This document shows positions 8 to 42,549 of a DNA stretch of 64,000 bases, piece after piece. The notes beneath the pieces were generated by a model. That model saw only the letters and a list, made by a program, of their open reading frames with translations. It searched no databases and was not told the origin of the DNA. The stretch's first letter is position 1. Every line of letters begins with the position of its first letter. Made by a program: the position numbers and the translations under genes. The stretch is from Candidatus Pacearchaeota archaeon (GTDB lineage Archaea; Nanobdellota; Nanobdellia; Pacearchaeales; JAPDKA01): the NCBI GenBank assembly GCA_038890875.1, contig JAWAFA010000001.1:258617-322616 (forward strand). The letters run 5' to 3'.

Positions 8-1945
8 GTGCCGCCAGGAAATGCAGAAAATGGAAGAGTCGGCTCAAGTCATCACGCTTTTTATTGTAGAGATGGCAATATTGAAGAAGTTAGTGTCGGA
101 GAATTAGTTACGAGAGGCAAAATATGTACTCAAACTGGTGAATTTATTAAACTATCAATAAATTTCTACAACGAATGTCTTAAATTAAACACTGAAGACG
201 AATGCAATAACTTTCGACCAAGCGGCCTTAGTATATGTAACTGGAGCGGTATAGGTTGCATTCCTAAATATCCTTATGGCGGCGCTGATTGTTCTTTAGC
301 TGATAATACAACAATAGTTTCTATTAATAATTGTAACATCAATAATTATCAGCAAAATTTTACTGAATGTATTAAGAATCAAAATTTAGAGTGGATTAAC
401 AAACAAATTCAAAGATGCTCAGCAATTGGTGATTGTGGCAACAGTGCTCATTTTTTAAATGAAATCAAAATTGAACCAGGTTATAGTTTTATAGCATCTC
501 CTTTAAATGAAACACACGCATTACTTATGTTTAGATGTGAGAAAGTCGTTAGTAGCTATGATATTTCTGGTAGTAATTGTGAAAAGTGCAACAACTCAGC
601 ATATTTTGGTTATAATCGAATATGCTCTCAATATGAGTGTGAAAGCCTTGGAAGTAACTGTATATCTGATCAGGATCAATGCAAAGCAAATTATGACTTT
701 ACTCCTATAGAATTAAATGAGTTTACTGTAAGAACAAATCAAGTAGAATGCTCAGCTATAAAGCCAAATATTACCACAACAGGAAAAATAGAATGTGTAA
801 CATCAAGTAAATGTATTCCTCCACAAATACCCTTAACATTAGCCTACAGTACAAATAAAGAAACAATATGTAAAATAGCTATTTATCCAAAAGGTCAAAG
901 TTTAACTGTTGACTGGCTTAACATGACAAATGCAGATAATACTGGAAATGTATTTAGTAAGCGGCATAAATGGGATATCCCTTCTTTTATTTTTCCATTA
1001 ATTAATCCAAGTACAACCTTTGAAGCAACAGCTTATCTTGTTTGCAAGGATAAGTTCAATTTAACTCAAACCTATAAAGCTGAGTTTTGTATAGCGAATC
1101 AAGATGTGGTAGCGCCAATAATAACCTCCTCTATTGAAAATGGAGCCAGGCTTCTTCCAGGAAATCAAAAGATGAAAATATATGTAAATGAACCAATAAA
1201 AGAATGTACATATAGCTATGGTTCAAAATCAGAAACATTGCAGCAATCAAGCTTTTCTCTTGATGCTTTAGGAAGATGGACAACTGAGGTAAACTTTGAA
1301 ATGTTAACTACACCATTAACATTTTCAATTGCATGTACTGATCTTAGTAATAATCAAGGCTCTTTAAGCCTGAACTTAATCCCAGCTTTAGGCAGTTTCA
1401 ATTTAGAAATAAAATCCCCTATTAACAATAGTGCAATCGTTGGTTGTGGAGACATGGTATCTGTTAACCTAAAAGTTGTAACCAGTGGTGATGCTGGAGA
1501 TGGAAAAGGAAATAGTAACTGCTATTATTCAAGTGATAATACAAATTGGGATATTATTCCTCCTTCTTCAAGTAATGAACATGAAATACAACTTTTACTT
1601 GGTACAGGAGATTATACTTATTATGTTAAATGCAATGATGCATATGGCCAAGGTCTTACAGCTTCAAGTACTGTGAACTTCAATGTTAATACAAACAAAA
1701 GAGGCCCACTTGTTACAAGAATTTATAAAGAAGGCGATGAGCTTGTGCTGCATACAGATAAGGTTGGTAGCTGTTATAAGCTAAGTTACTGTGAACAGCC
1801 AATTACTTCTTTTATTACCAAGCTGACAGAAAAAGCACAGAATATATTTAGTCTACCATGGCAACTCATTCCTTTAAATATAAGGTGTATTGATAATTGT
1901 AATAATAAAGGTGAATGTATCGTAATAAATCCACTTGAAATTTAA
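8..1945 (+). CDS. Cys-rich, NxS/T-sequon-rich secreted/surface protein. Probably 5'-partial: the reading frame is open to the window edge and no signal peptide is seen.
   Basis: 645-aa ORF with very high Cys/Asn/Thr content and many N-x-S/T sequons. No stop upstream in frame. Overlaps the next surface-protein gene by 11 nt. Confidence 0.5.
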   Translation: MPPGNAENGRVGSSHHAFYCRDGNIEEVSVGELVTRGKICTQTGEFIKLSINFYNECLKLNTEDECNNFRPSGLSICNWSGIGCIPKYPYGGADCSLADNTTIVSINNCNINNYQQNFTECIKNQNLEWINKQIQRCSAIGDCGNSAHFLNEIKIEPGYSFIASPLNETHALLMFRCEKVVSSYDISGSNCEKCNNSAYFGYNRICSQYECESLGSNCISDQDQCKANYDFTPIELNEFTVRTNQVECSAIKPNITTTGKIECVTSSKCIPPQIPLTLAYSTNKETICKIAIYPKGQSLTVDWLNMTNADNTGNVFSKRHKWDIPSFIFPLINPSTTFEATAYLVCKDKFNLTQTYKAEFCIANQDVVAPIITSSIENGARLLPGNQKMKIYVNEPIKECTYSYGSKSETLQQSSFSLDALGRWTTEVNFEMLTTPLTFSIACTDLSNNQGSLSLNLIPALGSFNLEIKSPINNSAIVGCGDMVSVNLKVVTSGDAGDGKGNSNCYYSSDNTNWDIIPPSSSNEHEIQLLLGTGDYTYYVKCNDAYGQGLTASSTVNFNVNTNKRGPLVTRIYKEGDELVLHTDKVGSCYKLSYCEQPITSFITKLTEKAQNIFSLPWQLIPLNIRCIDNCNNKGECIVINPLEI

Positions 1946-4172
1946 AATGAAAAAACAAAATTTAATCTTGTTTATTTTTTTCACCTTTATTTTAATTACT
2001 CCACTAATCTTAAGTCAAACAGAAGAGATAACTAAAATAAAAAAAGCCTATTCTTGGCTCAGAACAGAAGGAATAGAAAAATTTAACACTCTTACAGAAA
2101 AGCAGGCCTCTTTTACTATCTTTGCTTTAAAGGAAAAATTGACTGTTGATAAAGCAAGACTTATGCACAAAATATTGCTTGAAAAAAGTTATGACAATGG
2201 GACTTGCTGGCCAGGACCAAATGAAAATGATTGTAATGCTTTAACAACTGCTATCGTAAAACTTGCTCTTGATTCTCTTAGTAAAGATACAAGTAAGGCA
2301 AGTGCTTGGCTTCTAAAGAACTCTTTTTCAGTCCAAACAATCAATATTAAATCTTTTTTACAGGTCATTCCTATCACAGCTGAAACGATAAACTGTCAAA
2401 TAAAAACAAATACATCAACAGGGATAGTTAGTTTTAGCGCTGAAGGATTGGTTAATTCAATTGATAGCGAATTGACTTCATGTTTTGCTAGTACAATTTA
2501 TTCACTTCAACTTAATCAAAGTTGCTTAAATGATATTTTTAGAATAACATGTGACAAAGATGTAAAAGTTAATTTTATTTATAAGAAAAGTGAAGGACAA
2601 GAATGGTATGTGACCAATAAACTAGATTTTGTTAGTGCAATGCAAGAAAAAGAAATACAGCCCTTGAAAGCACTATGCATAGCCAAAGGACAAGTATGTG
2701 ATTATGAAGCTAGTTTATGGGCAGCCATTGCTTTTAAAAATTCTAATCTAAGTGTTGCCAAAAGCTTTCTCCTTTATCTTATTTCAGAAGCCTCAGTTAA
2801 TGAGCAGTACTTACCAGAAGCATTTTTGTATGCTTTAACTAATGCAAGTGATTATACTAATCAAGTTATCAAACTGCAAAGGTTTGATGGACTTTTTGTT
2901 GCCCCTAACACAGCTTATAACGAATATTACGATACTGGACTCGCAGGAGTAATGGGAAGTTTGAATAAATTAAATTTAACTGTAACAAAATCAACCTTGC
3001 TCAACAATCAAACGAGAGAAGGATTTTGGAGCGCAAGCAATAATGTTGATGCTATCAGAGATACTGCCCTGATTCTAGCAGGAATATGGCCTACTTTTAC
3101 AGGAGTTTCAACTTGCGAACAGCAAGGCTACAGCTGTGTTCAAAATTGTAGCGCAATTAATGGAGCATTAGTTGCATTATCTTGCTATACGGGAGAATGT
3201 TGCAATATAAATAGTATTGAAGGAGCTTGTGAGCTTAAGGCAGGGAACTGTACTGATACCACTACATGCCCTTCAAACACAACTCAGGTTCCTTATGCTT
3301 GTTCCCAAGGAAAATGCTGCAAACAAATAACTAAGTCCCTATGTGCAGCAGAAATTAATGGAACAATCTGTCAACCTAATCAAAAATGTTTGGTGAATGG
3401 TACTATTGTTCCTTTTATTAGCTCAAGTGATAGTGCTTACTGCTGTATTGGAAATTGTATAAGTTCAACAAAAGCATGTGCTGAACAAGGAGGTGAAATA
3501 TGCGACCCACAGCAAAAATCATGTCAAAATAAATGGTTATTTGCAAGTGATACGAGCTATTGTTGCCAGCAAGGTTTTTGCGCAGATGTTTTATTGACTT
3601 GCCAACAAATGGGAGGAGTAATATGCGAGGCAGATCAAGATTGTAAAGGAGGTTATCTTGTTACAGCGAGCAATACTGCTGGTAAGGCAACTTGTTGTGT
3701 TCAAGGAGGGACTTGCCTAAAGAAGACTTGTGAGCACAATAAATGTGAATCAGATGAAACTTGCAATGGAAATTCTTATGAGACAAGCGATGCTTTAAAG
3801 TGTTGTGAAGGTAATTGTGAAAAGCCATGCTCTTCTTTAGGTGGTAATGTTTGCCCCGAAAATTATAAATGTAAGGGGGAAGTCCTAAATTCTTCAGACA
3901 CAACATCATGTTGCATTGGTGATTGTGTTGAAAAGAAAGGCCTTCCATTCTTTATTATAATCATTTTGATTATTGTGATCATTTTCATAATTTTATTCTT
4001 TTTAATAAAGAAAGGTTATATTTCTAAATTAAAATCTAAATTTAAAAAGAAGCCTACTGCCCCTTCAGTACCAACATTAAAAACAATGCCAACGTTGACA
4101 AAAACAACTAGGCTAGCCTCTAAACCTATGCCGCCAACCCAACCAATTCAACCAAGACAAATCCAAAAATGA
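1935..4172 (+). CDS. Surface-anchored cysteine-rich repeat protein. It has a signal peptide, tandem CC-motif modules, a C-terminal TM helix and a basic/Pro-Thr cytoplasmic tail.
   Basis: N-terminal hydrophobic signal (LILFIFFTFILITPLILS). At least six ~35-40 aa repeats carry the CC motif (YCCIGNC, YCCQQGFC, TCCVQGGTC, KCCEGNC, SCCIGDC). The C-terminus has FFIIIILIIVIIFIILFFLI followed by KKGY... and a PT-rich tail. Confidence 0.6.
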   Translation: MKFKMKKQNLILFIFFTFILITPLILSQTEEITKIKKAYSWLRTEGIEKFNTLTEKQASFTIFALKEKLTVDKARLMHKILLEKSYDNGTCWPGPNENDCNALTTAIVKLALDSLSKDTSKASAWLLKNSFSVQTINIKSFLQVIPITAETINCQIKTNTSTGIVSFSAEGLVNSIDSELTSCFASTIYSLQLNQSCLNDIFRITCDKDVKVNFIYKKSEGQEWYVTNKLDFVSAMQEKEIQPLKALCIAKGQVCDYEASLWAAIAFKNSNLSVAKSFLLYLISEASVNEQYLPEAFLYALTNASDYTNQVIKLQRFDGLFVAPNTAYNEYYDTGLAGVMGSLNKLNLTVTKSTLLNNQTREGFWSASNNVDAIRDTALILAGIWPTFTGVSTCEQQGYSCVQNCSAINGALVALSCYTGECCNINSIEGACELKAGNCTDTTTCPSNTTQVPYACSQGKCCKQITKSLCAAEINGTICQPNQKCLVNGTIVPFISSSDSAYCCIGNCISSTKACAEQGGEICDPQQKSCQNKWLFASDTSYCCQQGFCADVLLTCQQMGGVICEADQDCKGGYLVTASNTAGKATCCVQGGTCLKKTCEHNKCESDETCNGNSYETSDALKCCEGNCEKPCSSLGGNVCPENYKCKGEVLNSSDTTSCCIGDCVEKKGLPFFIIIILIIVIIFIILFFLIKKGYISKLKSKFKKKPTAPSVPTLKTMPTLTKTTRLASKPMPPTQPIQPRQIQK

Positions 4173-10914: not shown

Positions 10915-11919
10915 TTATTTTTCAAGTTTTAGTTTTGCAATGAAAAAACCTTCGCTATTAAAATCTTGGGGCATAATTCTTACTGCTTTTTTTAATTCTT
11001 TATTATAACTTTTTCCTTCCCATTCGCAAATACCTTGCCTTGTTGGAATTTTTAATTTTATTTTTTCAATTTTCAAAGGAAATCTTTTTAGCACGTAATC
11101 AATAACTCCCTCATTTTCTTCATGACTTAAAGTGCATGTTGAATAGACAAGAATGTTATCGTTTCTTAAAAGAGGTATTATATTCATAAGAATTTTTTTC
11201 TGAATCCAACTAAGCCGTCTTATAGTTTTTAAATTCCAGGTTTTAAAAAGCGCAATATTTTTTCTTATTGCTCCTTCATTGCTACATGGGACATCGGCTA
11301 AGATATAGTCAAAAGTTTTTTGTCTAATTTCTTTTGCAAGCTTTTTAATGGGCATTATTGTAACTAATGTATTGATTACTCCGCATCTTTGTAAATTACT
11401 CGCTAAAGCTATTCCTCTCTCCCAATTTGCATCATTAGCTATCATCAAGCCAGTATTTTTCATTAAAGCAGCTAGATGTGTTGTCTTTGATCCAGGAGCT
11501 GCACAGCAATCAAGAACAAGTGAGTACTCGGATGGCATTAACACTTTTGCAGGAAGCATTGAACTAAGCGATTGTGCATAATAATAGCCAAGCAAATGCT
11601 CAGGAGCATTTCCAAGCTCTCCAGAAGTAAGCTGCGTTTTTATTACAAAAGCCTCCTCTAAACCATATTTTTGCATTTGCTCAATATCCCATTTTTCTTC
11701 AAGTCGCGCTTTCAGTTTTTCAATAGAAATTTTTAAAGTATTAGCTCTAATGCTAAATAACATTGGTTCATAACATTTATCAAAAAATTTTTCAATGTCA
11801 TTTTTATTTTTTAAAATTTTAGAAATGCGTAAAAAAAACTCAAGCTTTGGTTTATAATCTTTATTTTGATATTTTTCAAGAATTTTTTCATAAAGTTCAT
11901 TAGTTTTATCATTTATCAT
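10915..11919 (-). CDS. NOL1/NOP2/Sun-family RNA (cytosine-C5)-methyltransferase.
   Basis: Motifs GYYYAQSLSS, DCCAAPGSKT (SAM site), DVPCSNEG and YSTCTLSHEENE (catalytic Cys pair). Confidence 0.85.
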   Translation of the reverse strand: MINDKTNELYEKILEKYQNKDYKPKLEFFLRISKILKNKNDIEKFFDKCYEPMLFSIRANTLKISIEKLKARLEEKWDIEQMQKYGLEEAFVIKTQLTSGELGNAPEHLLGYYYAQSLSSMLPAKVLMPSEYSLVLDCCAAPGSKTTHLAALMKNTGLMIANDANWERGIALASNLQRCGVINTLVTIMPIKKLAKEIRQKTFDYILADVPCSNEGAIRKNIALFKTWNLKTIRRLSWIQKKILMNIIPLLRNDNILVYSTCTLSHEENEGVIDYVLKRFPLKIEKIKLKIPTRQGICEWEGKSYNKELKKAVRIMPQDFNSEGFFIAKLKLEK

Positions 11920-18824: not shown

Positions 18825-19478
18825 TTATTTTTCAACTATAAACAGTTGTTTTTTCTTTAAAGCCCTTTCTATAATCTCTTTTTCCCTCTCGGTTACTATT
18901 GTATGATAAAAAATTGCATGTCCAAGGTTAACTGCCTTTCCTAAATTTTTAACATTTTTGAGGTATGCACTCGAAAGGTCTGCTCCCCAAAGGTCTGCTC
19001 CCCAAAGGTCTGCTCTCCAAAGGTATGCTCCCGAAAGGTCTGCTCCCGAAAGGCATGCTCTCCAAAGGTATGCTCCCGAAAGGTCTGCTCCCGAAAGGCA
19101 TGCTCTCCAAAGGTCTGCTCCCGAAAGGTCTGCTCCCAAAAGGTCTGCTCCCCAAAGGTTTGCTTCTTTTCCTCTAAAAAATGGTAAATAAAGATTTCTT
19201 GCCACAACACCTCGAAGCTTAGAATTATCCATGATTATAGGATCTAAATCAAGGTTAGCGTTTGTTAAATACTTTTGCAGTTCTTCAAAAGATTCATGAT
19301 CAGCAAGATTAAAACCTTCTTCTAATTCTATTCTAGAAAAATCCCTTTCTCCAGCTAAGATTTTTTTTACAAGTTCGTCTCCTTTCATTGGTATAAGTTG
19401 TGTTACCATATTAATTAAATAAAGATTAAGGTTTATAAATCTTTCGGTTCTTTGACTACTCTTAAGATACGACATCAA
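18825..19478 (-). CDS. Pentapeptide-repeat protein.
   Basis: About 17 consecutive A(D/N)L(S/W)GA pentapeptides (ANLWGADLLGADLSGADLWRACLSGADL...). Confidence 0.8.
   Translation of the reverse strand: MMSYLKSSQRTERFINLNLYLINMVTQLIPMKGDELVKKILAGERDFSRIELEEGFNLADHESFEELQKYLTNANLDLDPIIMDNSKLRGVVARNLYLPFFRGKEANLWGADLLGADLSGADLWRACLSGADLSGAYLWRACLSGADLSGAYLWRADLWGADLWGADLSSAYLKNVKNLGKAVNLGHAIFYHTIVTEREKEIIERALKKKQLFIVEK
18966..19170. repeat. Tandem ~15-bp direct repeat (aaaggtctgctcccc-type, ~13 copies) that encodes the pentapeptide repeats.
   Basis: Visible nucleotide periodicity of 15 bp with minor variants (ggtctgctcccc / ggcatgctctcc / ggtatgctcccg). It produces open frames in five of six frames, which are the ORF-track artefacts at 18941-19210. 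Confidence 0.8.
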
Positions 19479-19829
19479 CCTCTAAAAGACACTATCCCTC
19501 GCGACTTTGATTTTTGCCTTTTGAATGTTGCACGTATTCGGGAGAGATTAACAGCGATTATGTTCAATAAAATCGGCTCTGTGAAAATGTGGTAAGATGT
19601 AGCATTTATAAATGAAAACATTGTAATGAACCATTCTGTCGTTATTTATTTCATCAACAAGAAGCAGAAAGATGGTTACTGATTTGGAAAAATAAATTAG
19701 ACGCAGAATTAGTTGAATATAAAAGAAAAGAGACGATAGAAAAGAAGTTGGTGTAAGAAATGATTCACCTCGCCGATTTTACTTTGCTATCGCAATCGGC
19801 TAACGCCGAGAATATAACACCAATTATGT

Positions 19830-20609
19830 CTAATTGCTCGGCGGCGCTTTCGCTATTTTCCATAGAACCTCAAATTGTTTTATATAAAGGTCAGCTACCT
19901 CTTCACTTTCAATTCTTATAACCAATGGTTTTAATGTAAAAATAAAATAAATAATTTTGTTTCCATAAATAGAATGAACAACTTTATTGTTGAAATATTC
20001 TTTAGGTAAAATTTTAACTTTTACATATGGGTGTTTTGTAATTGATTTTCCTTCTGCAAATAATTGTCTTGAAAAAATTTTGTATTTTTCTCTTAAATTC
20101 CAAAATCTTTTCCATATATATTCAGGAACTTGTTTAATAAATTCTTCTTTTGAAAATGAATTCATTACAAGAATTTCTTTATATTTTCGTTCAATTCCAT
20201 CTTTAATTATATCATTCAAAATATACCTTATTCCTTCTATTCCCTCATAAACTTCAACTTTTGATGTTGTTATTATTTCTTTTTCTTTTAAATCTGCTAT
20301 TTTTTCCTTCAATCTTTGTTTTTGTTTTTCCAGGTATTCTTCCTTTGCCTCTAAAATATTAATCAAATTATTGGGGTCAGTTATTCTAAACAGCTTTATC
20401 TTTCCCTTTATTATATAATTTATCAAGCCTTTTCCTAACAAAGAATTTAAAGAATCATAAACATGGGCTCTTGATATTGTTGTATATCTTGCAATATCAT
20501 AAGCTTTTGCTTCCTTTAATTTCAAGAGGATAAGATAAACTTCAGCCTCATTATTTGTCAATCCCAATTCAATTAAATCCGCTTTTTGTAGCATATTATT
20601 ATTAAACAC
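19830..20609 (-). CDS. TrmB-family transcriptional regulator.
   Basis: N-terminal HTH: LGLTNNEAEVYLILLKLKEAKAYDIARYTTISRAHVYDSLNSLLGKGLI. Full TrmB-like length (259 aa) with a C-terminal effector domain. Divergent from the rSAM gene. Confidence 0.7.
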   Translation of the reverse strand: MFNNNMLQKADLIELGLTNNEAEVYLILLKLKEAKAYDIARYTTISRAHVYDSLNSLLGKGLINYIIKGKIKLFRITDPNNLINILEAKEEYLEKQKQRLKEKIADLKEKEIITTSKVEVYEGIEGIRYILNDIIKDGIERKYKEILVMNSFSKEEFIKQVPEYIWKRFWNLREKYKIFSRQLFAEGKSITKHPYVKVKILPKEYFNNKVVHSIYGNKIIYFIFTLKPLVIRIESEEVADLYIKQFEVLWKIAKAPPSN

Positions 20610-20734
20610 ATTTTCCTTATAAATCTTTCTTTTTTCGTCCTTTAAATGGACAAATAAAATATTTAAATCTTTGAATAATAGTTATAACATGAAAAAAAAT
20701 AATTATAGCATGAAAAAACAGAGAAAAGAAAGAA

Positions 20735-22114
20735 ATGAGAATGGAATCAAAATTACAAAAATCACAGAACCAGTCAGAATCACAAATTTATCAAAAAAAC
20801 ATAAAGGCTTATCCGCAGGATGCACAGTCTGTATTTAATTATCACAAATTACCAACCATACCATTAAAAGACTCTTACTTAATTTATTCTCCTTTTGCTA
20901 GAGAATTTGCTTTAATAAAAAGACATTTACTAAATGAAAAAATACTTTTGAGAAAACTAAAAAAGAGGGGTTTTTTTAATTCAAACCCTTTTCCTCAAGA
21001 AAAAAATACGCTTAAGGTTGGTTTAATAACTACTACTGCTTGTAATCAAAAATGTGCCTACTGCGCTACTTGCGCTGAATTTATAGGAAATAAAAAGATT
21101 TATTCAAAAAAACTTTTTATGGATGAAGACGCCGTTATTTTAACTTTAGATAAATTGCTTAAAAAGTATAAAATAGAAGCGATTAATTTTATGGGCGGGG
21201 AACCTACTTTAAATATGCCTATTATAAAAAAAGTCATAGATTTAATAAATAATAAAAGTAAAAAGACACTATTCTCTATTCAAACAAATGGAGTAATTAA
21301 TAAAGAAGATTTGAATTATCTAATTAGTAAGGGAATCGTTTTCTCGATTTCATGGGATGGAATAGAAAATGATAAATTTAGAGCTTCATCTAAAATTATA
21401 AAGAAAAATATATTAAAACTTGTAAAAAAAGGGGCCTTATTCAAAATTCGTATGACTGTTGGAAAGTGGAATTCAAGCAATATCATAAAGTCTATTAGAT
21501 GGCTTTTAAAAAATGGTGTTAAGTTTATACAACTTGAACCGATGTTACCGGAAGGAAGGGGAAGCAAATTATCTGATCAAAGTTTAACCCCTCAAGAATT
21601 TAAAACAATTTTCTTTAATACCTTAAAAATTGTGGAGAAGAAAAAATGTTTTTTAATAAATTATGCCTTTGCAAATCTTTTTTCACCTAAGCTCTTTTTT
21701 TGTGATTCTGCAGCAGGCAAAAAAATTATATTGAATGCAGACGGAAGTATCTCTTCATGTTACAAAGTCCAAAGAAGAAAAGACCCTCTTTCAGAAAATT
21801 TTATAATTGGGGAATATAATTTTAAAAAAATCAAATTTAAAAAATCAAATTTTAATGTAAATTCTTATCCAACATGTAAGAAATGTGCTTTTTATTACCT
21901 GTGTTCTGGTGCCTGTCCATTTGAAAATATAAAATCTAATGAAGGAGTGGACAAATATTTATGCGACTTAAGAAGTTCTTTATTGATGAGCGGTATTCTT
22001 CATTTGTATAGTTGTAAATTAAAGAAAAATATGTGTAGTTTAGAAGGTCTTTATATTATGGGAAGAATTGCCATGAAAAGAAAATATGATCGTTTGCCAA
22101 ATTTTATGATTTAA
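20735..22114 (+). CDS. Radical SAM enzyme with a C-terminal SPASM/twitch Cys-rich domain and a ~90-aa N-terminal extension.
   Basis: CxxxCxxC radical-SAM motif (TTTACNQKCAYCATC). Auxiliary cluster cysteines follow (CDSAAGK...SSCYK...CKKCAFYYLCSGACPF). Confidence 0.8.
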   Translation: MRMESKLQKSQNQSESQIYQKNIKAYPQDAQSVFNYHKLPTIPLKDSYLIYSPFAREFALIKRHLLNEKILLRKLKKRGFFNSNPFPQEKNTLKVGLITTTACNQKCAYCATCAEFIGNKKIYSKKLFMDEDAVILTLDKLLKKYKIEAINFMGGEPTLNMPIIKKVIDLINNKSKKTLFSIQTNGVINKEDLNYLISKGIVFSISWDGIENDKFRASSKIIKKNILKLVKKGALFKIRMTVGKWNSSNIIKSIRWLLKNGVKFIQLEPMLPEGRGSKLSDQSLTPQEFKTIFFNTLKIVEKKKCFLINYAFANLFSPKLFFCDSAAGKKIILNADGSISSCYKVQRRKDPLSENFIIGEYNFKKIKFKKSNFNVNSYPTCKKCAFYYLCSGACPFENIKSNEGVDKYLCDLRSSLLMSGILHLYSCKLKKNMCSLEGLYIMGRIAMKRKYDRLPNFMI

Positions 22115-22224
22115 AATGAAAGAAGAAATACTAAATTCTTTAAAAGAAAGAGTTAAAATCCATACAAATCATAAAACTTACAAACATGTTTCTTTAAAAA
22201 TTATGGATTAAGAAACTTTGAGAT

Positions 22225-22470
22225 TTATGAAGGCGTTTTTAGATCAGATCATCTCGACCGACAATAGAAATATGCGAATATCTTGTAAATAATCTAAGGC
22301 TATGTTGCAGATATTGGATGTGGAACAGGTATTTATTCAATTTTATGGCAAAACATGGTGCATCTTCGGTTACAGCAATTGATATTGATCCCCGAGCTTG
22401 TAAAAATGTAAAAGAAAATGCTCATCGCAACAAGTTTCTATCGCAAAATGGCCCCCCATCCGAGTGCTGA
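22225..22470 (+). pseudogene. Frameshifted remnant of a PrmA/HemK-like class I SAM methyltransferase.
   Basis: Frame a reads ...VADIGCGTGIYSILWQNMVHL... then a stop. The +1 frame continues as ...KHGASSVTAIDIDPRACKNVKENAHRNKF, which are MTase motifs I and II/III. Locally GC-richer than the flanks, with no intact ORF. Confidence 0.5.
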
Positions 22471-22502
22471 TGGGTATCCTTGACTTCGTCAAGAAGAAAT
22501 TA

Positions 22503-24155
22503 TTATTTTTTGAAGATAGAATATTTCCTTTCTAAAATTTCTTTTGCTTTATCAATTTCTGCTCTAATCTGCTCATCAGTCAAACTATTAGGAGTAGTAT
22601 AAACTTTTCTGAATTCTCTAGGAACATTTTGCAAATTTTGACTTTTTTCTGGAATTCCTAAATATACTGATACATCAGCAGGAGAATATCTTCTAATTTT
22701 ACTGTATGCTTTTTCTAAAGTTTTTCCTGTTCTAACATCATCTTCAATAAGTAGTGTGTGCTTACCCCTAATCACACTTATATCATCTAATTCTTTATAT
22801 GGTCTGTTTTCGGTTCTGCAATATTCGTCTATATAGATATTTCTTATTGGTAAACCCAATAGTTCAAACATACTTGCATATACAAAACCTTCTGGTCCAA
22901 TCGCTACTCCAATATCTACCATACCTTCATCCATGACTTTTCTAACTGAAGAAAAAGAAACAAGTAAATCATGTGGAAAATGTTGTATCTGTAAATTACG
23001 CCTGGCAAAATAATCTAGTGCTTCTTTTTTTAATAGCTCATCTACAACTCTACCGAGAATTTCATATTTTTGAGCTTCTTGGTCTCTACTTCTTAATATA
23101 TTTCTCGTTCCTTCTGGATTTATTAGCAAGGTTTGCCTAAAATTTATTAACTCTTGTTCGATTGTGTGATAAAAATGTTGTACCAATTCATCCATTGGAG
23201 CATAAGAATTATCCAATAATTCAATAAATCTGGTTCTCTGAACAAGTCTTTCTGAGATTTCATCTAAAAGAGCTTCATCTTGAAATGGGATAAAAACAGG
23301 TCTAAGAGCATCTTTAACCCTACCTTCCAGTTTGTCACGCGCTTTCATACAACTTAGCTTGCTCTCTAAAAAATATTTAGCTATTCGTCTAGCAGCAGCA
23401 CTTCCCTTTAACTCATCTTCTTCTAAAAAAGGATTTGAGGTATATAAAGCCACATCACTAGGTATTAATCCTTTTTTATATGGAAGTGTGCTTCTAATTG
23501 TGCTTAATCCAGAAGTTCTGCCTTTCCAAAAAGTATCAAAATTTACAGTATCATTGCCAATGAAAAATTCTTCAGATTTCTCAGATTTCATTCCAGGCCA
23601 TCTGAATAAACCAATATACGCCCCATTAACTTTAACATCCTTTTCTCTTAAGTATCTTGTAACTTCTCTTAATGCTTTACCTGTAACGAAGTCAATATCT
23701 GTAAGCAATACTGATTTCTTGTCACGTAATTGTTTTACTTTTTCATCGTCTATTTGTGGTTCTTTCATATCTCTTTTACGGTGCGAATAATCAATCTCAA
23801 ATATTGGAAAACCTACCATTTCAAAAATTTGTGCATACGGGATTCCTGCATTTTTTATGCCAACAACGGCATCATAATTTTGTCTTAATTGTAAAGCCGC
23901 ATCTACATGAGAAATTAATGGAGAGTCTAAATATCTTTTCCATTGTTCTCTTGCTTTCCATTGCGATAATAGAAATGCTTCTGTGTGTAAAATTCGATCA
24001 TGCGGACTAAGTTCTTCTTTTAATAGAACTTTAGCTAAACTAGCTAAATCTCCTTCAATCCTAGCTGCTTCTTCAGTTATTTCTGGGTTTCTAATTGGTG
24101 AATGAGGTTGAACTATCCGTAGCTCCAATCTTAAACCACAACCGCACATTGTCAT
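22503..24155 (-). CDS. Hypothetical protein with two phosphoribosyltransferase (PRT type I)-like domains in tandem.
   Basis: Two PRPP-binding-loop-like motifs: VLLTDIDFVTGKAL (~residue 150) and TLLIEDDVRTGKTL (~residue 470). 550 aa. Higher GC than the surrounding genes. Confidence 0.45.
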   Translation of the reverse strand: MTMCGCGLRLELRIVQPHSPIRNPEITEEAARIEGDLASLAKVLLKEELSPHDRILHTEAFLLSQWKAREQWKRYLDSPLISHVDAALQLRQNYDAVVGIKNAGIPYAQIFEMVGFPIFEIDYSHRKRDMKEPQIDDEKVKQLRDKKSVLLTDIDFVTGKALREVTRYLREKDVKVNGAYIGLFRWPGMKSEKSEEFFIGNDTVNFDTFWKGRTSGLSTIRSTLPYKKGLIPSDVALYTSNPFLEEDELKGSAAARRIAKYFLESKLSCMKARDKLEGRVKDALRPVFIPFQDEALLDEISERLVQRTRFIELLDNSYAPMDELVQHFYHTIEQELINFRQTLLINPEGTRNILRSRDQEAQKYEILGRVVDELLKKEALDYFARRNLQIQHFPHDLLVSFSSVRKVMDEGMVDIGVAIGPEGFVYASMFELLGLPIRNIYIDEYCRTENRPYKELDDISVIRGKHTLLIEDDVRTGKTLEKAYSKIRRYSPADVSVYLGIPEKSQNLQNVPREFRKVYTTPNSLTDEQIRAEIDKAKEILERKYSIFKK

Positions 24156-24345
24156 ACATATTGATTAACTTGCAAGTTTATAAAGCTTTCTATTAATTAG
24201 TAATTTATAAATAGTAACATGGCAAGCTCCAGGAAAGGCTCTCCAACAAAAACTCCTCCAAGTTAATTCTGTATAAATGAGACAAAAAAGATTTTAATGT
24301 TTAATACATCAACAATAAGTTAACAAAACCCTTAAGATAAACGAC

Positions 24346-25053
24346 CTATAAGCTTAATTTTTCGTACTTATTAACAATTGCATACAATATTCCCTTATTT
24401 GTTTTTTCAAAGTCACGAAGAAATTTTTTAGTGATCTCTTTATTGCCGCCTTCTTTTTTAGGAATCTCAGAAATTTCAGGAATCTTTATTTTATTTAGTA
24501 GACAATAAATTTTATTTTCTTCTTCCTTGCAAAAATAAAGAGGCCTTATTATCTTAATTTTTTTCTTCTCTATAGGGTGGATTATCTCTTTTTCTCCATT
24601 AAAGAAATAATTTAATATACTTACAGCAGCATCATTAAGGCATTCCCCCCTAGCAATTATAGTTTTTAATTTTAATGCAAATTTTTTAATTATTTTCTCT
24701 TCAAAAATTGATTTAGGACTTTGGCTTACAGCAAAATCAATCTTCTTCTTTACACAATAATCTCGAATATATTTGTAATCTTTTCTTTGAGAATATTGAA
24801 TAAATAATGCTATAATATTTATCTTTCTTTGTTGGCAGTATCTATGAAAAAAGTGAAGCAAAGCAAAGTCATTTTTATTACCTTCTCTGACAACAATAAG
24901 GACCTTATCTTTCTTAGGTTTTGTTTTTATCATTTCATAAGCTCTTATCGTTCGTAAGATTTTTTTCTCATAAAACCTAATAAAGTGTCTAGCACATAGT
25001 TTTTTCCCGCTTATATCAGTATAAACTGGCTTTGCATCACATTGCTTGCACAT
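24346..25053 (-). CDS. TtuA/TtcA/NcsA-like PP-loop-superfamily protein with an N-terminal zinc finger and a degenerate PP-loop.
   Basis: N-terminus C-KQ-C...C-AR-H (TtuA-type CxxC...CxxH). C-terminal conserved IIRPLYFCKEEE (the RPL motif). The expected SGGKDS is replaced by VVREGNKND. Confidence 0.35.
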   Translation of the reverse strand: MCKQCDAKPVYTDISGKKLCARHFIRFYEKKILRTIRAYEMIKTKPKKDKVLIVVREGNKNDFALLHFFHRYCQQRKINIIALFIQYSQRKDYKYIRDYCVKKKIDFAVSQSPKSIFEEKIIKKFALKLKTIIARGECLNDAAVSILNYFFNGEKEIIHPIEKKKIKIIRPLYFCKEEENKIYCLLNKIKIPEISEIPKKEGGNKEITKKFLRDFEKTNKGILYAIVNKYEKLSL

Positions 25054-25094
25054 GTAAAAATTTTAAATAAAAGATATTTAAAATTATTGGAAAA

Positions 25095-25697
25095 TTGGAA
25101 AAGATGAAAAAAGTGAAGGAAAAAGAGAAAAAAAGTGAAGTGATAAAAAGCGAAGTTCAGATACCATTTACTTTTGCTATTTTAGTTATTTTTATTTTTG
25201 TATCTTTCTTTTGGCTTGATAAAATAAAAATTCCGAGAAGTTCTACTCTTGATAGCTTGCTCGCTCCATTTTTTGGGGCTTACAGCTATATCAGCCTGGT
25301 CTTTTTAATTTTCCTCGCTGGGGTTTTCTTTAACAGGATTTATAAATCAAACCTAAAGAAAGAGGCAAGTGCTTTGATTATAGCAATTTTGCTTGGCTTC
25401 TTGTTAAAAGCCATTGTTGGAAGAGCAAGACCTACTGAAGGCTTTTATCTTAGCAGTTCTTTTCCGAGCAATCATACTATAGCTATTTTTTCACTACTTA
25501 CATTTTTCCAAGGACTTGCTTTGATTGTTTGGCTTTTGCTAAGCTTGCTAGTTGCTTTTTCAAGAGTTTATTGGGGCTATCATTATTTTAGTGATATTGC
25601 CTTTGGCGCTTTTCTTGGCTATCTCGTCGGGTTTTTGATGAATAAAATATTAAAATCGAAGAAGGAAGGGGAAGCTAGAGCAAAGTCAAGCCAATGA
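25095..25697 (+). CDS. PAP2-family (type 2 phosphatidic acid phosphatase) integral membrane phosphatase.
   Basis: Three PAP2 motifs are present: KAIVGRARP, PSNHT and SRVYWGYHYFSD. Multiple TM helices. Confidence 0.8.
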   Translation: MEKMKKVKEKEKKSEVIKSEVQIPFTFAILVIFIFVSFFWLDKIKIPRSSTLDSLLAPFFGAYSYISLVFLIFLAGVFFNRIYKSNLKKEASALIIAILLGFLLKAIVGRARPTEGFYLSSSFPSNHTIAIFSLLTFFQGLALIVWLLLSLLVAFSRVYWGYHYFSDIAFGAFLGYLVGFLMNKILKSKKEGEARAKSSQ

Positions 25698-25781: not shown

Positions 25782-26507
25782 TTATAGTAATTTCCAGATT
25801 AATTCAAATATTTTTTTTTGAGTTTGCGCAATATCTTTATTTTTTATTATAACTCCAATTAATTTTTCTTTGTTCATTGTTAGAAACGCTACGTTTTCAT
25901 TATAAATATAAGTCATTGTGTTTATTTTTATTTCTTTTGGAAGAAATTTGGTTTTAGTATAGGTTTTATTTCTTAATTTAAGTTCTTTATTAATTTTGTC
26001 CGTTTTTTCTTGTATTATTCTACAAAATATTTTTTCTTTTATTCTCTTTTCACTCCAGTGAGGAAAATAAAATTCCAAGGTTTTAAATATTTCATCACAT
26101 TCTATTACTAGAATTTCTTCGGGCTTTATTTTTAATATATTTTCTAATATTGTTTTTATTCCTTCAACTCCTTCATAAATTTCTATTTCTGGTTTTTCTT
26201 CTACTGTCTTTTTTATTTGCTCTAATTTTGGAATTATAGATTTAATAGTATTTAATTTTTCTTCTTCTATTTTTAAAACTCTTTTTGGATCAACTGCCTC
26301 AAAATATCTAGTTCCTGATTTGATAGTATAAAAAACAAGTCCTTTTTTTAATAAAGAATTCAAAATACTATAAATTGTTGTCCTAGGAAGATTTAATCTT
26401 TTTGATATTTCATTAACTTTAGAATTACCTAATTTTAATAATTCTATATAGATCTCTGCTTCTTTATCATTTAGTCCTATTTTTTTTAAAGCATATTTTT
26501 CTTCCAT
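25782..26507 (-). CDS. TrmB-family transcriptional regulator, paralogous to the one at 19830-20609.
   Basis: HTH IGLNDKEAEIYIELLKLGNSKVNEISKRLNLPRTTIYSILNSLLKKGLV. Divergently oriented to the three-gene unknown cluster. Confidence 0.65.
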   Translation of the reverse strand: MEEKYALKKIGLNDKEAEIYIELLKLGNSKVNEISKRLNLPRTTIYSILNSLLKKGLVFYTIKSGTRYFEAVDPKRVLKIEEEKLNTIKSIIPKLEQIKKTVEEKPEIEIYEGVEGIKTILENILKIKPEEILVIECDEIFKTLEFYFPHWSEKRIKEKIFCRIIQEKTDKINKELKLRNKTYTKTKFLPKEIKINTMTYIYNENVAFLTMNKEKLIGVIIKNKDIAQTQKKIFELIWKLL

Positions 26508-26756
26508 TTTATTATAATTTTTTCTTTTTTATAAATCTTTTTTATAGTCCATTTTTGACAACAAAAATATAAATAATACAACTACTAAGGAGAGAGTATA
26601 AGAGATTAAAGAAAATGACAAAGGAAAAATATGAAAAAGAAAAAAGATATGTAGAAAGTTATGAAGATTTAGCAAAATATCCTTCATTGTCAGAAGGAAA
26701 GAATGAATTAGAAATCATGTTCAACAAAATAAATCGAACACGACGCGATGAAGTAA

Positions 26757-27650
26757 ATGGAGGGGGTGGAGAAAATGGAATTTGAAAAAATAATTTTGCA
26801 AAAACCAAAAAGAGAAAATTTACCTGAAATGCCAGAGTTAGTTAAACAATATTGTGATTTAAAAAGTTATAAGCCTGCTGGAAAGGTTTTTAGCATAGAA
26901 ATTAAACATAAGAGTAGGGATTCAAAAACAGACGGCATGGCTTATTTCAATGAGCTAGTAGTGAATAAAGAAAATAAAGTAGTCTATAGTAGTGGAATGA
27001 TGAAATATAGAGGAGCTTATAACTGGGAAATTGATAATCACGACACCCAGTTGTTTGATCCTTCAATTTTAGAAGAAAAAAGTAATGAAGTAGTATTTGG
27101 ATTAAGAACTGGTGCAGGAAACATAAAAATATACAGATTAAAGGGAAATGAACTAAAAGAACTTTACACCTTTGACATCGATGGTTATAGGAAAAAGAAG
27201 AAAAGAAATGAATTAATTAAAAAGATTCTTGAAGATCCAGATGAATGGGTGAAGTACATTGAAAATGAGCAAGGGCATCATTGGTATATTGATTCTTCGA
27301 GAATGCGTGATTTGAAAAATGAAAAAGAAAAGGGAAATGAATGGAGGGACGATTACCAAATTCTTGATGACGGAAATTTGATTATAGCACTAGCGAAACA
27401 TTACGATAGAGACTATGATCCTATCGTAGATTGTTATTATGTGTACTTTTGGAAAAAAAGGGTTGGTATGGCAAAATCAAAAACTTACTATACAGGACTT
27501 TGCCACCCTTGGGGAAAATTTTATATAATTGAGGTTAGATTTTTAGAACCAGCATCTTATGATAAAGATAAACAGATAGTTATAGCAAAAATAGGAAATA
27601 AGGGGCAAAACAAAGTAATAGAACACAAATTTAAGTTAGAAGAAAAATAA
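26757..27650 (+). CDS. Hypothetical cytoplasmic protein (cluster gene 1). The true start is probably the ATG at 26775, after a GGAGGGGGTGG SD.
   Basis: 297 aa with no signal peptide or TM and no recognisable motif. Shares a conserved upstream leader with the next gene. Confidence 0.45.
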   Translation: MEGVEKMEFEKIILQKPKRENLPEMPELVKQYCDLKSYKPAGKVFSIEIKHKSRDSKTDGMAYFNELVVNKENKVVYSSGMMKYRGAYNWEIDNHDTQLFDPSILEEKSNEVVFGLRTGAGNIKIYRLKGNELKELYTFDIDGYRKKKKRNELIKKILEDPDEWVKYIENEQGHHWYIDSSRMRDLKNEKEKGNEWRDDYQILDDGNLIIALAKHYDRDYDPIVDCYYVYFWKKRVGMAKSKTYYTGLCHPWGKFYIIEVRFLEPASYDKDKQIVIAKIGNKGQNKVIEHKFKLEEK

Positions 27651-27736
27651 GGAGTTAGAAAATTGAAAGAAGTATAATAACAAAAACAAAAGCCAATCGA
27701 GCACGACGCGATGAAGTAAATGGAGAGGTGAAGAAA

Positions 27737-36815: not shown

Positions 36816-38060
36816 TTACATTTTCTTTACTATCCTTTCGACATCACTATCCATCCCCTTTTTTTTATAATATTCAATAACTTTCTGGTATAACTCTCTA
36901 GCTTTTTCGATCATGCCAGCATCGTTGGCCATATCAGCTATTTTTTCATAGTTTTCAATAACTTTCTTATACAACTCTTCAACCTTCTCTTCCATACCAT
37001 ATTCACTCGCTAATTTGAAGGCATTATCAAACATCCCCGCTTTTTCATAAATCTCGACAGCCTTTTCACCCATTTTTGCCTCAATTGCAATTCTTACAGC
37101 ATCATCAATCCTTCCTTTTTTCTCATAATCTTCAATAGCCTCCTTATACAACTCTTTTGCTTTTTCTTCATTTCCCTTCTCTTTAGCTAATCTAGCAGCA
37201 ACATCTTTAAATCCTGCTTCTTCATAATCCTTAATTGCTCTCTCTATCATATTAGCTTCAAGAGCTATCTTTGCAGCATAAACAAACATTCCTTTTTTCT
37301 CATAATCTTCAATAGCCTCCTTATACAACTCTTTTGCTTTTTCTTCATTTCCCTTCTCTTTAGCTAATCTAGCAGCAACATCTTTAAATCCTGCTTCTTC
37401 ATAATCCTTAATTGCTCTCTCTATCATATTAGCTTCAAGAGCTATCTTTGCAGCATAAACAAACATTCCTTTTTTCTCATAATCTTCAATAGCTTTAAGA
37501 TAAAATTGCTGAGCTATACCTTTAATACCTGCCTCAAGAGCTATCTTTGCAGCCTCATAAAACCTCTTTTTGTCCTTATACCCCTCAATAACTTTCTTAT
37601 ATAACTCTTCAGCCTTATCCTTCATACCATGCTCACTAGCAACTTTAGCAGCAATATAAGTTAACCCTGCTTTTTCATAAATCTCGACAGCCTTTTCACC
37701 CATTTTTGCCTCAATTGCAATTCTTACAGCATCATCAATCCTTCCTTTTTTCTCATAATCTTCAATAGCCTTTAGATACAACTCTTTTGCTTTTTCTTTC
37801 ATCTCAATTTTACTTGCTATCTTTGCACTATCATAAAACTTCCCTTTACTTTCATAATACTTAATAACTACTTGATAGAGTTTTTTAGCTATTTCTTTCA
37901 TCCCTAAATTAAGAGCAATAGTAGCGGCTTCTTCGCAATCTTTAATAATTTCCGCACGTAACTTTTCGGCTCTCTCAGTCATCCCTATTGAAAGCGCAAA
38001 TTTAACTGATTTTTCACGTTCTTTAATAGATTTAAGCATTTGCTCTAGGTCGGCTTTCAT
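36816..38060 (-). CDS. Alpha-helical tandem-repeat protein (~38-aa Sel1/TPR-like units).
   Basis: Repeats of A.KIA.EA.M.E.A...YEKAG...AA.LA.E.G.EEKA.ELYK.AIEDYEKKG, with two 59-aa blocks that are identical at the protein level. Confidence 0.55.
   Translation of the reverse strand: MKADLEQMLKSIKEREKSVKFALSIGMTERAEKLRAEIIKDCEEAATIALNLGMKEIAKKLYQVVIKYYESKGKFYDSAKIASKIEMKEKAKELYLKAIEDYEKKGRIDDAVRIAIEAKMGEKAVEIYEKAGLTYIAAKVASEHGMKDKAEELYKKVIEGYKDKKRFYEAAKIALEAGIKGIAQQFYLKAIEDYEKKGMFVYAAKIALEANMIERAIKDYEEAGFKDVAARLAKEKGNEEKAKELYKEAIEDYEKKGMFVYAAKIALEANMIERAIKDYEEAGFKDVAARLAKEKGNEEKAKELYKEAIEDYEKKGRIDDAVRIAIEAKMGEKAVEIYEKAGMFDNAFKLASEYGMEEKVEELYKKVIENYEKIADMANDAGMIEKARELYQKVIEYYKKKGMDSDVERIVKKM
37140..37495. 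repeat. Near-perfect tandem duplication (~177-bp unit x2) within the helical-repeat gene.
   Basis: The sequence ...ttcaatagcctccttatacaactcttttgctttttcttcatttcccttctctttagctaatctagcagcaacatctttaaatcctgc... recurs identically starting ~177 bp later. Confidence 0.8.
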
Positions 38061-41379: not shown

Positions 41380-41600
41380 GAGAAAATCTTCCTTCTTATG
41401 ATTCTCTCTTCTATATACCATTAAAAAAATTCAAAAGAGAACCACAAAAAGATAAAGCAAGATCGACTAATAAAAAATTTCAGGAAGAAATTGATATAAT
41501 AATAAGAAATTTTTTTGAAAAGTTTAAGGTTGACTATTCAGAATATAAAAATGCAGAAGATGCAGTAGAGAAAATAAAAGCTACTCTTCTTTGTCACTAA
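41301..41600 (+). CDS. Hypothetical ORF overlapping the NTPase ORF in a different frame. Possible C-terminal part of the same frameshifted gene.
   Basis: 99-aa ORF overlaps 41301-41379 with the upstream gene. The combined length (~175 aa) matches a single small NTPase. Confidence 0.3.
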
Positions 41601-42549
41601 CTCCATACTGAGTTATAAAAAAAACTGTTTCATTATCGGGAAGATTTGGGCTATCTATAAGCTTAACTATTCTACTATTTGATTTGCCGCGCCTAAAATA
41701 AAGCCTGTAAGTTGAGGCATGCCCAACTATATGGCCACCTATAGCTCTTGTTGGATCACCAAACATCATTGCTGGATCAGCCATAACTTGGTTTGTAACA
41801 TAAACAGCAAGATTATATTGTTCAGCTAGTCGCATTAAAATATGTAAATATTTGTTTAATTTTTGCTGTCTATCAGCGAGAGTACCTCGTCCTGTATATT
41901 CAGCTCTAAAATGACTTGTCAATGAATCTACAATGACTAATTTAATTGGCTCACCTTCTCTCAACATTTCTTGAACTTTATCAAGCAACAATATTTGATG
42001 GTCACTATTAAAAGCCCGAGCAACATAAATATTATTAAGAGTTTTTTCAGGATCAAGGCCTTTAGCTAGAGCCATTTGTTTAATCCGCTCTGGTCTAAAT
42101 GTACCTTCAGTATCTATATAAATTGCCTTTCCATTTGCTCCTCCTTCTTCGAGTGACATTTGCACATTGACAGCAAGTTGATGGGCGACTTGTGTTTTGC
42201 CAGAACCAAAAGCACCAAAAGCTTCAGTTATTGCTTTAGTCTCAACACCTCCTCCTAATAAATTATCAAAGTTCTTGCTATTTGTTGTTATTTTTATTAT
42301 CTCTTTTCTTCTTCTCTCATAAGCAACACCAGTATCGAAATCAAGTTTTAACAACTTTCTTGCTGCAGCAATAATCTTTCGCGCCACTCCTTCAGAAACA
42401 TCAATAGCAGTTCCGAGTTCTGCTGGCGGCATTACTGCAATTGCCATCAGATCAGTAAAACCAGCATCTTCGAGCTTTTTAGCAATAGTGCTTCCAACTC
42501 CAGGCAAATCTTTTATTTCATACTCCTTTTCTTTTGCCTTTTCAGCCAT
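41581..42549 (-). CDS. radA: DNA repair and recombination protein RadA.
   Basis: N-terminal HhH ([17 protein letters not shown]). Walker [10 protein letters not shown]. RecA-fold core. 322 aa. Confidence 0.9.

Follow-up and report, generated by a model that had tools for sequence, protein, structure and literature searches.

A radical SAM/SPASM enzyme of an unnamed clade and a candidate overlapping precursor peptide in a Pacearchaeota genome

We analyzed the radical S-adenosylmethionine (SAM) enzyme encoded at positions 20735 to 22114, forward strand, of a 64-kb stretch of DNA (the window). The stretch comes from a genome of low GC content (~31%) that carries archaeal replication and repair genes and whose host we take to be a Candidatus Pacearchaeota archaeon of the DPANN group. 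Judged by its sequence, the enzyme is a peptide- or protein-modifying SPASM enzyme outside every curated family, and it falls in an unnamed, mainly bacterial clade. Relatives are paired with a short peptide, or carry a fused tail, that ends in cysteine and one hydrophobic residue, and an open reading frame (ORF) with such an end overlaps the start of the enzyme gene in the window. We lean, with limited confidence, toward reading this locus as a stripped-down peptide/maturase pair resembling those that make peptides which are ribosomally synthesized and then modified post-translationally (RiPPs). The pair would probably have been acquired horizontally, with the precursor ORF overlapping the start of the gene for the maturase.

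The enzyme and its clade

The gene and the parts that identify its product are the following.

20735 to 22114, forward strand: radical SAM/SPASM enzyme, 459 amino acids (PF04055, TIGR04085); the NCBI call is 457 amino acids, from M3
20831 to 20974, forward strand: N-terminal mini-domain, residues 33 to 80, with four beta strands and one helix
21041 to 21064, forward strand: CxxxCxxC radical SAM cluster motif, C103-x3-C107-x2-C110
21701 to 21964, forward strand: SPASM domain cysteines in the seven-cysteine pattern (TIGR04085)

A first-pass annotation of this DNA had described a CxxxCxxC motif and a C-terminal multicysteine SPASM-like domain, and both were borne out. C103, C107, and C110 lie in a core that matched the Radical_SAM model PF04055 at 56.8 bits (cutoff, 29.5) and also matched Fer4_12, and the SAM-binding motif GGEPT occupies residues 154 to 158. 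The SPASM pattern, for which we applied the motif CX9-15GX4C...CX2CX5CX3C...C, is complete: C323-x13-G337-x4-C342, then C381-x2-C384-x5-C390-x3-C394, then C410. Two SPASM models had been proposed as a check. TIGR04085 matched residues 326 to 408 above its cutoff (38.4 bits against 27), whereas Pfam PF13186 gave no match to the whole protein at E <= 0.01 or to residues 300 to 459 at E <= 10; PF13186 is also missing from the precomputed Pfam annotations of clade members. By analogy with the published anSME structure, we infer that C323, C342, and C394 hold auxiliary cluster I (Aux I) and that C381, C384, C390, and C410 hold Aux II. The first three are the only invariant SPASM cysteine positions in the family alignment; C305 of the window enzyme is not conserved. 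The protein is 100% identical to the GenBank entry [quoted passage not shown] (MAG, metagenome-assembled genome), whose gene lies on a contig of 486 kb.

An AlphaFold model of the enzyme (predicted local distance difference test [pLDDT] score, 73.9; predicted template modeling score, 0.80) matched the folds of anSMEcpe (4k36; E = 8e-11, template modeling [TM] score 0.56), SuiB, TigE (TM score 0.61), and SkfB, and the best match among PDB sequences was CteB (5wgg, 3e-10). No named maturase model of NCBIfam was reached. The best resemblance was to PapB (NF047865, 96 bits against a cutoff of 340) and the second best to anSME (TIGR03942, 75 against 349.45), a score that told against the earlier suggestion of an anSME. 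The nif11 model gave 73 bits against 519, and the SCIFF model TIGR03974 gave 51 against 425.

Homologues were collected with a word-indexed search of 5.8 billion proteins and with an exhaustive profile search. The former returned ~14 relatives, some of them from Aminicenantes, at 32 to 36% identity over ~88% of the length, with E values as low as 1e-87. One partial protein, P0004, was 44% identical to the window enzyme, and these two alone make up its subclade. The profile search returned 1167 representatives at E < 1e-30, which places the clade inside a large SPASM radiation. The same exhaustive search found no other copy in Pacearchaeota, the gene occurring in one population among ~15 billion proteins. 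A literature search gave no published description of the clade, which as a whole appears to be undescribed.

We examined gene neighborhoods at ~20 distinct loci, from Aminicenantes, Desulfobacterales, Ignavibacteriales, Bacteroidetes, and unbinned metagenome contigs. Each had either an ORF of 60 to 70 amino acids directly downstream of the radical SAM gene or a tail fused to the enzyme; where the small ORF was missing, the enzyme was longer by 25 to 50 residues. The free ORFs end in ...LFDICI, ...MIDICF, ...VLDICF, ...VIDICI, ...SRSESCI, or ...SRSESCF, and the fused enzymes in ...IDACDICI or ...CDICV, ...ARSECI, ...TRSECF, or ...DRCESVF, with ...AECL, ...CECF, ...ESCL, ...VGCF, and ...EGCF as further fused ends among the representatives. 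A penultimate cysteine followed by one hydrophobic residue is thus constant in free and fused ends, except in the ...DRCESVF tails. This constancy, which we regard as our strongest argument, suggests that the extreme C terminus of a peptide is what enzymes of the clade modify. Together with the class of the enzyme, the pairing supports the general proposal, already made in the first-pass annotation, of a RiPP-type SPASM maturase.

Fusion is linked to a change in the enzyme itself in one group. All eight enzymes with ...xCDIC[I/V] tails (P0007 to P0009, P0011, P0013, P0020, P0028, and P0029; loci L018, L019, and L027) are without the CxxCx5Cx3C block and the last cysteine, that is, the four Aux II positions, which are kept in 7 other fused enzymes and in 125 unfused ones. 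This loss may represent a transition from a SPASM to a twitch domain coupled to substrate fusion. Separately, the C terminus of a distant SPASM enzyme (25% identity; L022 2103 to 3176 and L032 3977 to 5029, from an Erysipelothrix MAG and a metagenome contig) is very rich in cysteine and ends in ...GFVECI, which may be chance or an extension of the Cys-Ile theme.

The loci share more than the small ORF. The usual order is a Peripla_BP_6 binding protein gene, whose stop overlaps the start of the radical SAM gene, then the radical SAM gene, the 60- to 70-amino-acid ORF, and a gene for a protein of ~690 amino acids. A HemK/MTS-type methyltransferase follows the latter in some loci, and two LivH/M-type permeases and two ATPases of the ATP-binding cassette (ABC) type are present in most loci of sufficient extent. 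Resolvase, TraG, ParA, AbiE, or integrase genes often adjoin. The ~690-amino-acid partner (for example, L001 9464 to 11509, L003 9625 to 11927, L007 2587 to 4671, and L010 9081 to 11209) is sometimes split into two or three genes and gave no Pfam, NCBIfam, or PDB match. It has the invariant C-terminal motifs MDG, GKGSKTHG.aN.S, and ISADGPIK.WP. A possible likeness of these motifs to diadenylate cyclase domains found no support from Pfam at E <= 5, a phmmer search of the PDB, or a PDB profile search, which together returned only a spurious WD40-like match.

The N-terminal region is a further shared trait. The first-pass annotation had noted a leader of ~90 residues and suggested a RiPP recognition element (RRE). 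The leader is present, with ~95 residues preceding the radical SAM core, but no PqqD or RRE profile matched it. Residues 1 to 29 are unconserved and modeled as disordered (pLDDT < 50), and residues 33 to 80 form a small conserved domain, with pLDDT values of 81 to 90 in the full model and 81.5 when modeled alone. Its motif, (G)LP...SP(Y/F)...GFF, is conserved across the wider family and reads KLP...SPF...GFF in the window enzyme. PqqD was not among the Pfam matches (E <= 10) of 15 N termini, and a profile search of the domain against PDB sequences gave nothing relevant. A canonical RRE is a winged helix of ~85 amino acids, with a three-stranded sheet and three helices, whereas the domain here has ~48 amino acids in four strands and one helix. 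It is best described as a conserved mini beta-sheet with a helix, not a demonstrable RRE. A role in docking the peptide is plausible by analogy, because the domain has the same position as the RREs of CteB, SuiB, and TigE.

The candidate precursor and its interpretation

Three further features bear on the interpretation of the locus.

20662 to 20667, forward strand: TATA-like box TTTAAA, 27 nucleotides (nt) before ATG 20689
20689 to 20838, forward strand: candidate precursor peptide ORF, 49 amino acids, MKKNNYSMKKQRKERNENGIKITKITEPVRITNLSKKHKGLSAGCTVCI and a stop codon; overlaps codons 1 to 35 of the enzyme gene in another frame
22116 to 22470, forward strand: decayed class I (PrmA/MTS/HemK-like) methyltransferase pseudogene, starting 2 nt after the enzyme stop codon

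We scanned the window in six frames for ORFs of at least 20 amino acids from stop to stop (n = 1694). The window enzyme has no fused tail, ending in ...PNFMI, and no ORF with a Cys-[I/F/V/L] end lies downstream of it. We did not accept the C terminus ...DRLPNFMI as a degenerate fused tail, since it has no cysteine and its alignment there is arbitrary. Although the first-pass annotation had seen no short precursor ORF nearby, the scan gave the overlapping 49-codon ORF on the same strand, in the stop-to-stop frame 20623 to 20838, with the end ...GCTVCI. It is the only ORF of the 1694 that ends in CxxC[IFV] (12 end in C[IFV]), and the ending resembles the fused ends ...ACDICI and ...RCSVGCF. Its stop codon (20836 to 20838) abuts the point, at about residues 33 to 36, where homology of the enzyme to all relatives starts; the unconserved, disordered enzyme residues 1 to 29 lie under the overlap.

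Promoter geometry gives independent support for this ORF. We called starts and promoters from the empirical spacing of TATA box to ATG, a scan for bacterial promoters and terminators being uninformative for an archaeon. A TTTAWA box stands at -29 to -26 from the ATG of 15 of the 53 annotated window genes, compared with 2.4% of all 2135 ATGs, which implies that transcripts are mostly leaderless in this Pacearchaeote. The spacing fits ATG 20689 and not the enzyme ATGs at 20735 and 20741, which have no TTTAWA box between -45 and -5. Other genes with the box include those at 10915 to 11919, 36816 to 38060, and 41581 to 42549, and the spacing is useful for correcting start codons.

Immediately downstream, the methyltransferase remnant provides a measure of decay. 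The intact 236-amino-acid methyltransferase of locus L012 (2773 to 3483) matched positions 22184 to 22428 in two frames (tblastn, E = 7e-10), the match ending at about residue 111 of 236. The remnant has three in-frame stops, a frameshift, and a further frame change near 22180, and its 3' half is gone; it has no detectable homology to the methyltransferases of L003, L006, and L007. Over 19085 to 25114, the window is matched at 100% identity by two independent Logan assemblies; they add no sequence variation, and because of their identity the lesions are not an artifact of a single assembly. The enzyme ORF beside it, in a region of 27% GC, is undamaged and retains GGEPT and all 10 cluster cysteines. 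At the lesion density of the neighbor (at least 5 per ~320 nt), and assuming equal neutral time, we calculate that its 1380 nt should contain ~20 lesions; none was found, which speaks for continuing selection on the enzyme.

In L012, the intact methyltransferase gene directly follows that of the closest enzyme homologue (44% identity), which has lost its 5' third and has no CxxxCxxC motif. From these two cases, the radical SAM-methyltransferase subclade looks like a reduced cassette that is decaying differently in different hosts. The decaying copy in L012 (361 to 1551 and 1799 to 2776) also has as neighbors a cyanophycin-synthetase-like ATP-grasp gene and part of a further methyltransferase.

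Put together as a mechanism, the TATA box at 20662 would drive a leaderless transcript starting at ATG 20689. Its first cistron, which we infer to be translated, would encode the 49-amino-acid peptide ending in ...G-C-T-V-C-I, and its second, 46 nt further and in another frame, the three-cluster radical SAM/SPASM enzyme. The peptide would dock on the enzyme, possibly at the small N-terminal beta-sheet domain, SAM would be cleaved at the cluster of C103, C107, and C110, and a hydrogen would be abstracted near the peptide C terminus. Most likely the sulfur of the penultimate cysteine would then be joined to a neighboring carbon, giving a thioether of the sacti- or ranthipeptide type. During this step, the substrate cysteine would ligate the auxiliary cluster for which the protein supplies just three conserved ligands. 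We propose this ligation and the thioether because only C323, C342, and C394 are invariant and because, in CteB, an auxiliary cluster with an open site binds the substrate cysteine (PMC8172795). By this analogy the chemistry is probably thioether formation, and we think it slightly more probable than not that the overlapping ORF encodes the substrate of the enzyme.

Several points weigh against this interpretation. The candidate ORF is upstream of the enzyme gene, with which it shares 104 nt, whereas all other loci have the peptide downstream or fused; the overlapping upstream arrangement occurs in no other genome and so has no comparative support. A hidden Markov model of 11 to 14 homologous peptides and tails ranked the candidate 30th of the 1694 ORFs (E = 7), and the candidate is without the acidic residue that most homologues have one or two positions before the cysteine. 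A likeness between the leaders ("IKITKITEP" and "IKISIIEPP") was dropped as evidence, the leader similarity not being significant. Because the region is rich in A, an additional open frame would not be very improbable. Given that 23 ORFs on the same strand end near the gene, we estimate the chance of a C[IFV] end at ~0.15 and of a CxxC[IFV] end at ~0.01, statistics computed after the motif had been seen. The thioether chemistry, for its part, is argued entirely from resemblance.

The missing operon partners are a further point on this side. We searched the window by tblastn with the binding protein, the 70-amino-acid peptides, proteins of 386, 385, 681, and 689 amino acids, three methyltransferases, the permeases, and the ATPases, and apart from the enzyme itself nothing matched at E < 1e-2 within the 64 kb. 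If the ~690-amino-acid partner, binding protein, and ABC genes are essential, a function of the bacterial type would be impossible here.

These same absences favor the main rival, that the enzyme is an orphan, the last intact piece of a transferred bacterial cassette with no cognate substrate, and that the small ORF is a chance frame. The binding protein, ~690-amino-acid partner, permeases, and ATPases are all gone from the window, the methyltransferase is a pseudogene, and the 5' truncation of the closest homologue shows the subclade decaying elsewhere too. The nonsignificant peptide profile search and the restriction of the gene to one population point the same way. However, a 459-codon ORF that has stayed intact, clusters and GGEPT included, beside so decayed a neighbor is difficult to reconcile with an orphan, and a chance frame would have to account for a TATA spacing that puts the transcript start on its ATG and for a CxxC-Ile end unique in the window. 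We judge this rival improbable, although it is the one to be taken most seriously.

A second rival keeps the same pair and assigns it another chemistry: oxidative decarboxylation and cyclization of the C-terminal Cys-Ile, as carried out by MftC, with the resulting small, peptide-derived molecule being processed further, in the bacterial operons, by the ~690-amino-acid protein and the methyltransferase. MftC is a SPASM enzyme that acts on the last two residues of its peptide. The strictly C-terminal Cys-[IFVL], free or fused, points to a chemistry that needs a free C terminus, and the presence of a transporter and of additional tailoring genes is consistent with a pathway to a small molecule. 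Against this, MftC-type models were outside the 25 best of 52 NCBIfam matches, which thioether-forming maturases lead; no MftB- or MftE-like partner was found; and the downstream processing genes are missing from the window. This chemistry therefore seems to us unlikely, more so than an orphan enzyme.

The enzyme might instead mature proteins, either by forming formylglycine as anSME does or by cross-linking cysteine-rich secreted proteins encoded nearby. anSME is the best fold match and the second-best NCBIfam match, and the window does contain two large proteins with 5 to 7% cysteine, at 8 to 4172, as the first-pass annotation had noted in suggesting surface-protein maturation. That suggestion did not hold up, since the conserved partner of the clade is a short peptide or tail and not a sulfatase or surface protein. 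The cysteine-rich genes, judged by cysteine content only, are 16 kb away, the anSME model scored far below its cutoff, and anSME is without the conserved N-terminal domain. We give protein maturation very little probability.

Least credible of all is a housekeeping radical SAM enzyme of tRNA modification or cofactor synthesis, the outcome that the first-pass annotation had named as contrary to its proposal: MoaA, NirJ2, and AhbC/D models gave weak partial matches to the shared core barrel only, far below their cutoffs, the distribution is patchy and the contexts accessory or mobile (resolvase, TraG, ParA, AbiE, integrase), no archaeal synteny is conserved, and no other Pacearchaeota copy was found.

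Returning to the peptide/maturase pair, we tentatively suggest a wider reading, which we think possible but doubtful. The window enzyme and ~20 bacterial relatives would form a new RiPP-like class whose core is the C-terminal Cys-hydrophobic dipeptide of a 50- to 70-amino-acid peptide. The peptide would be either free or fused to the maturase, the fused enzyme then lacking the second auxiliary cluster, and in the archaeon it would be overprinted on the maturase 5' end. The product could be a peptide-derived small molecule like mycofactocin, made and trafficked with the ~690-amino-acid protein and the Liv-type ABC system.

SPASM radical SAM maturases are among the main sources of new peptide chemistry. 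A curated model, a Pfam SPASM match, and a solved structure are all lacking for this clade, which nevertheless has a clean, testable signature; its self-fused members are one-gene systems for finding the chemistry. The archaeal copy would be a minimal, two-ORF version in a DPANN genome, and to our knowledge modified peptides are scarcely known in DPANN. The overlapping precursor gene, if real, shows how such genes escape gene callers. For the window itself the benefit is modest and consists of an improved annotation, a candidate for a hidden gene, and the recognition of a pseudogene.

Regulators and other features of the window

Two regulator genes lie on the opposite strand.

19830 to 20594, reverse strand: TrmB-like winged-helix regulator, 254 amino acids from ATG 20594 (PF01978, 62.6 bits; cutoff, 25.6)
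25782 to 26507, reverse strand: second TrmB-like regulator, a paralogue 32% identical over the full length, 5 kb away

The first-pass annotation had placed a TrmB-family regulator divergent from the enzyme gene, which agrees with the PF01978 match and with the coordinates apart from the start. We moved the start to ATG 20594 from the GTG at 20609 in the ORF list, based on a TTTATA box at -29 and the 254-amino-acid Logan gene call. From its sequence the product is predicted to bind DNA. Sugar sensing is putative: the equivalog models gave 44 bits against a cutoff of 650 (TrmBL1) and 26 against 600 (TrmB). Its only tie to the enzyme is the shared divergent promoter region of 94 nt, and no TrmB neighbor was present at any homologous radical SAM locus examined.

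Other observations concern the rest of the window. Cysteine makes up 5.3% and 6.7% of the two large cysteine-rich proteins, at 8 to 1945 and 1935 to 4172 on the forward strand (window mean, 1.7%); the N terminus of the second is signal-like, and nothing was found that connects them with the enzyme. A pentapeptide-repeat protein (PF00805, 77 bits) is encoded at 18825 to 19478 on the reverse strand, where repetitive DNA opens long ORFs in several frames (18941 to 19210). An exact 24-mer, CACGACGCGATGAAGTAAATGGAG, occurs twice on the forward strand (26739 to 26762 and 27702 to 27725), where none would be expected by chance; it is GC-rich for this genome, and the copies lie at the start regions of two neighboring genes (beginning at 26757 and 27728), one copy at each.

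Comparison with known systems

We compared the locus with four known types of system. Like anSMEcpe (4k36), its best fold match, the enzyme has the seven-cysteine SPASM arrangement of a protein that acts on a polypeptide cysteine. anSME differs in having no N-terminal domain; no sulfatase context was seen here, and the clade is tied to short peptides. A likeness to twitch-domain maturases such as SkfB is confined to bacterial cousins, the ...CDICI-tailed subclade, which keeps the Aux I positions only, whereas no SPASM cysteine is missing from the window enzyme.

The mycofactocin system (MftA/MftC) shares with this clade a SPASM enzyme that works on the extreme C terminus of a short peptide and further tailoring genes in the operon. 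The differences are that no significant MftC-specific match, MftB chaperone, or MftE peptidase was found here and that the peptide ends in Cys-[IFV], not Val-Tyr. MftC itself is named with PqqE and anSME as a founder of the SPASM group (PMC8172795).

The PapB- and SCIFF-type maturases, including CteB, have the same architecture: an N-terminal region for peptide binding (putative in the window enzyme), then a radical SAM core and a full SPASM domain. PapB was not only the best NCBIfam resemblance of the window protein but the first or second for 10 of 10 sampled members of the wider family, none above cutoff. Substrates of PapB, SCIFF maturases, and CteB are cysteine-containing peptides, often with an acidic residue near the cysteine, and PapB forms Cys-Asp thioethers (PMC8172795). 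We found no PapB-type peptide of repeated Cys-X3-Asp, the candidate having C-T-V-C-I only, and no SCIFF-like ORF with six cysteines in 45 residues among the small ORFs of the window. Instead of such repeats, the substrate end in this clade is a single C-terminal [D/E]-x-Cys-hydrophobic (C-T-V-C-I in the window), and its operon partners are a 690-amino-acid protein, a methyltransferase, and a Liv-type ABC system.

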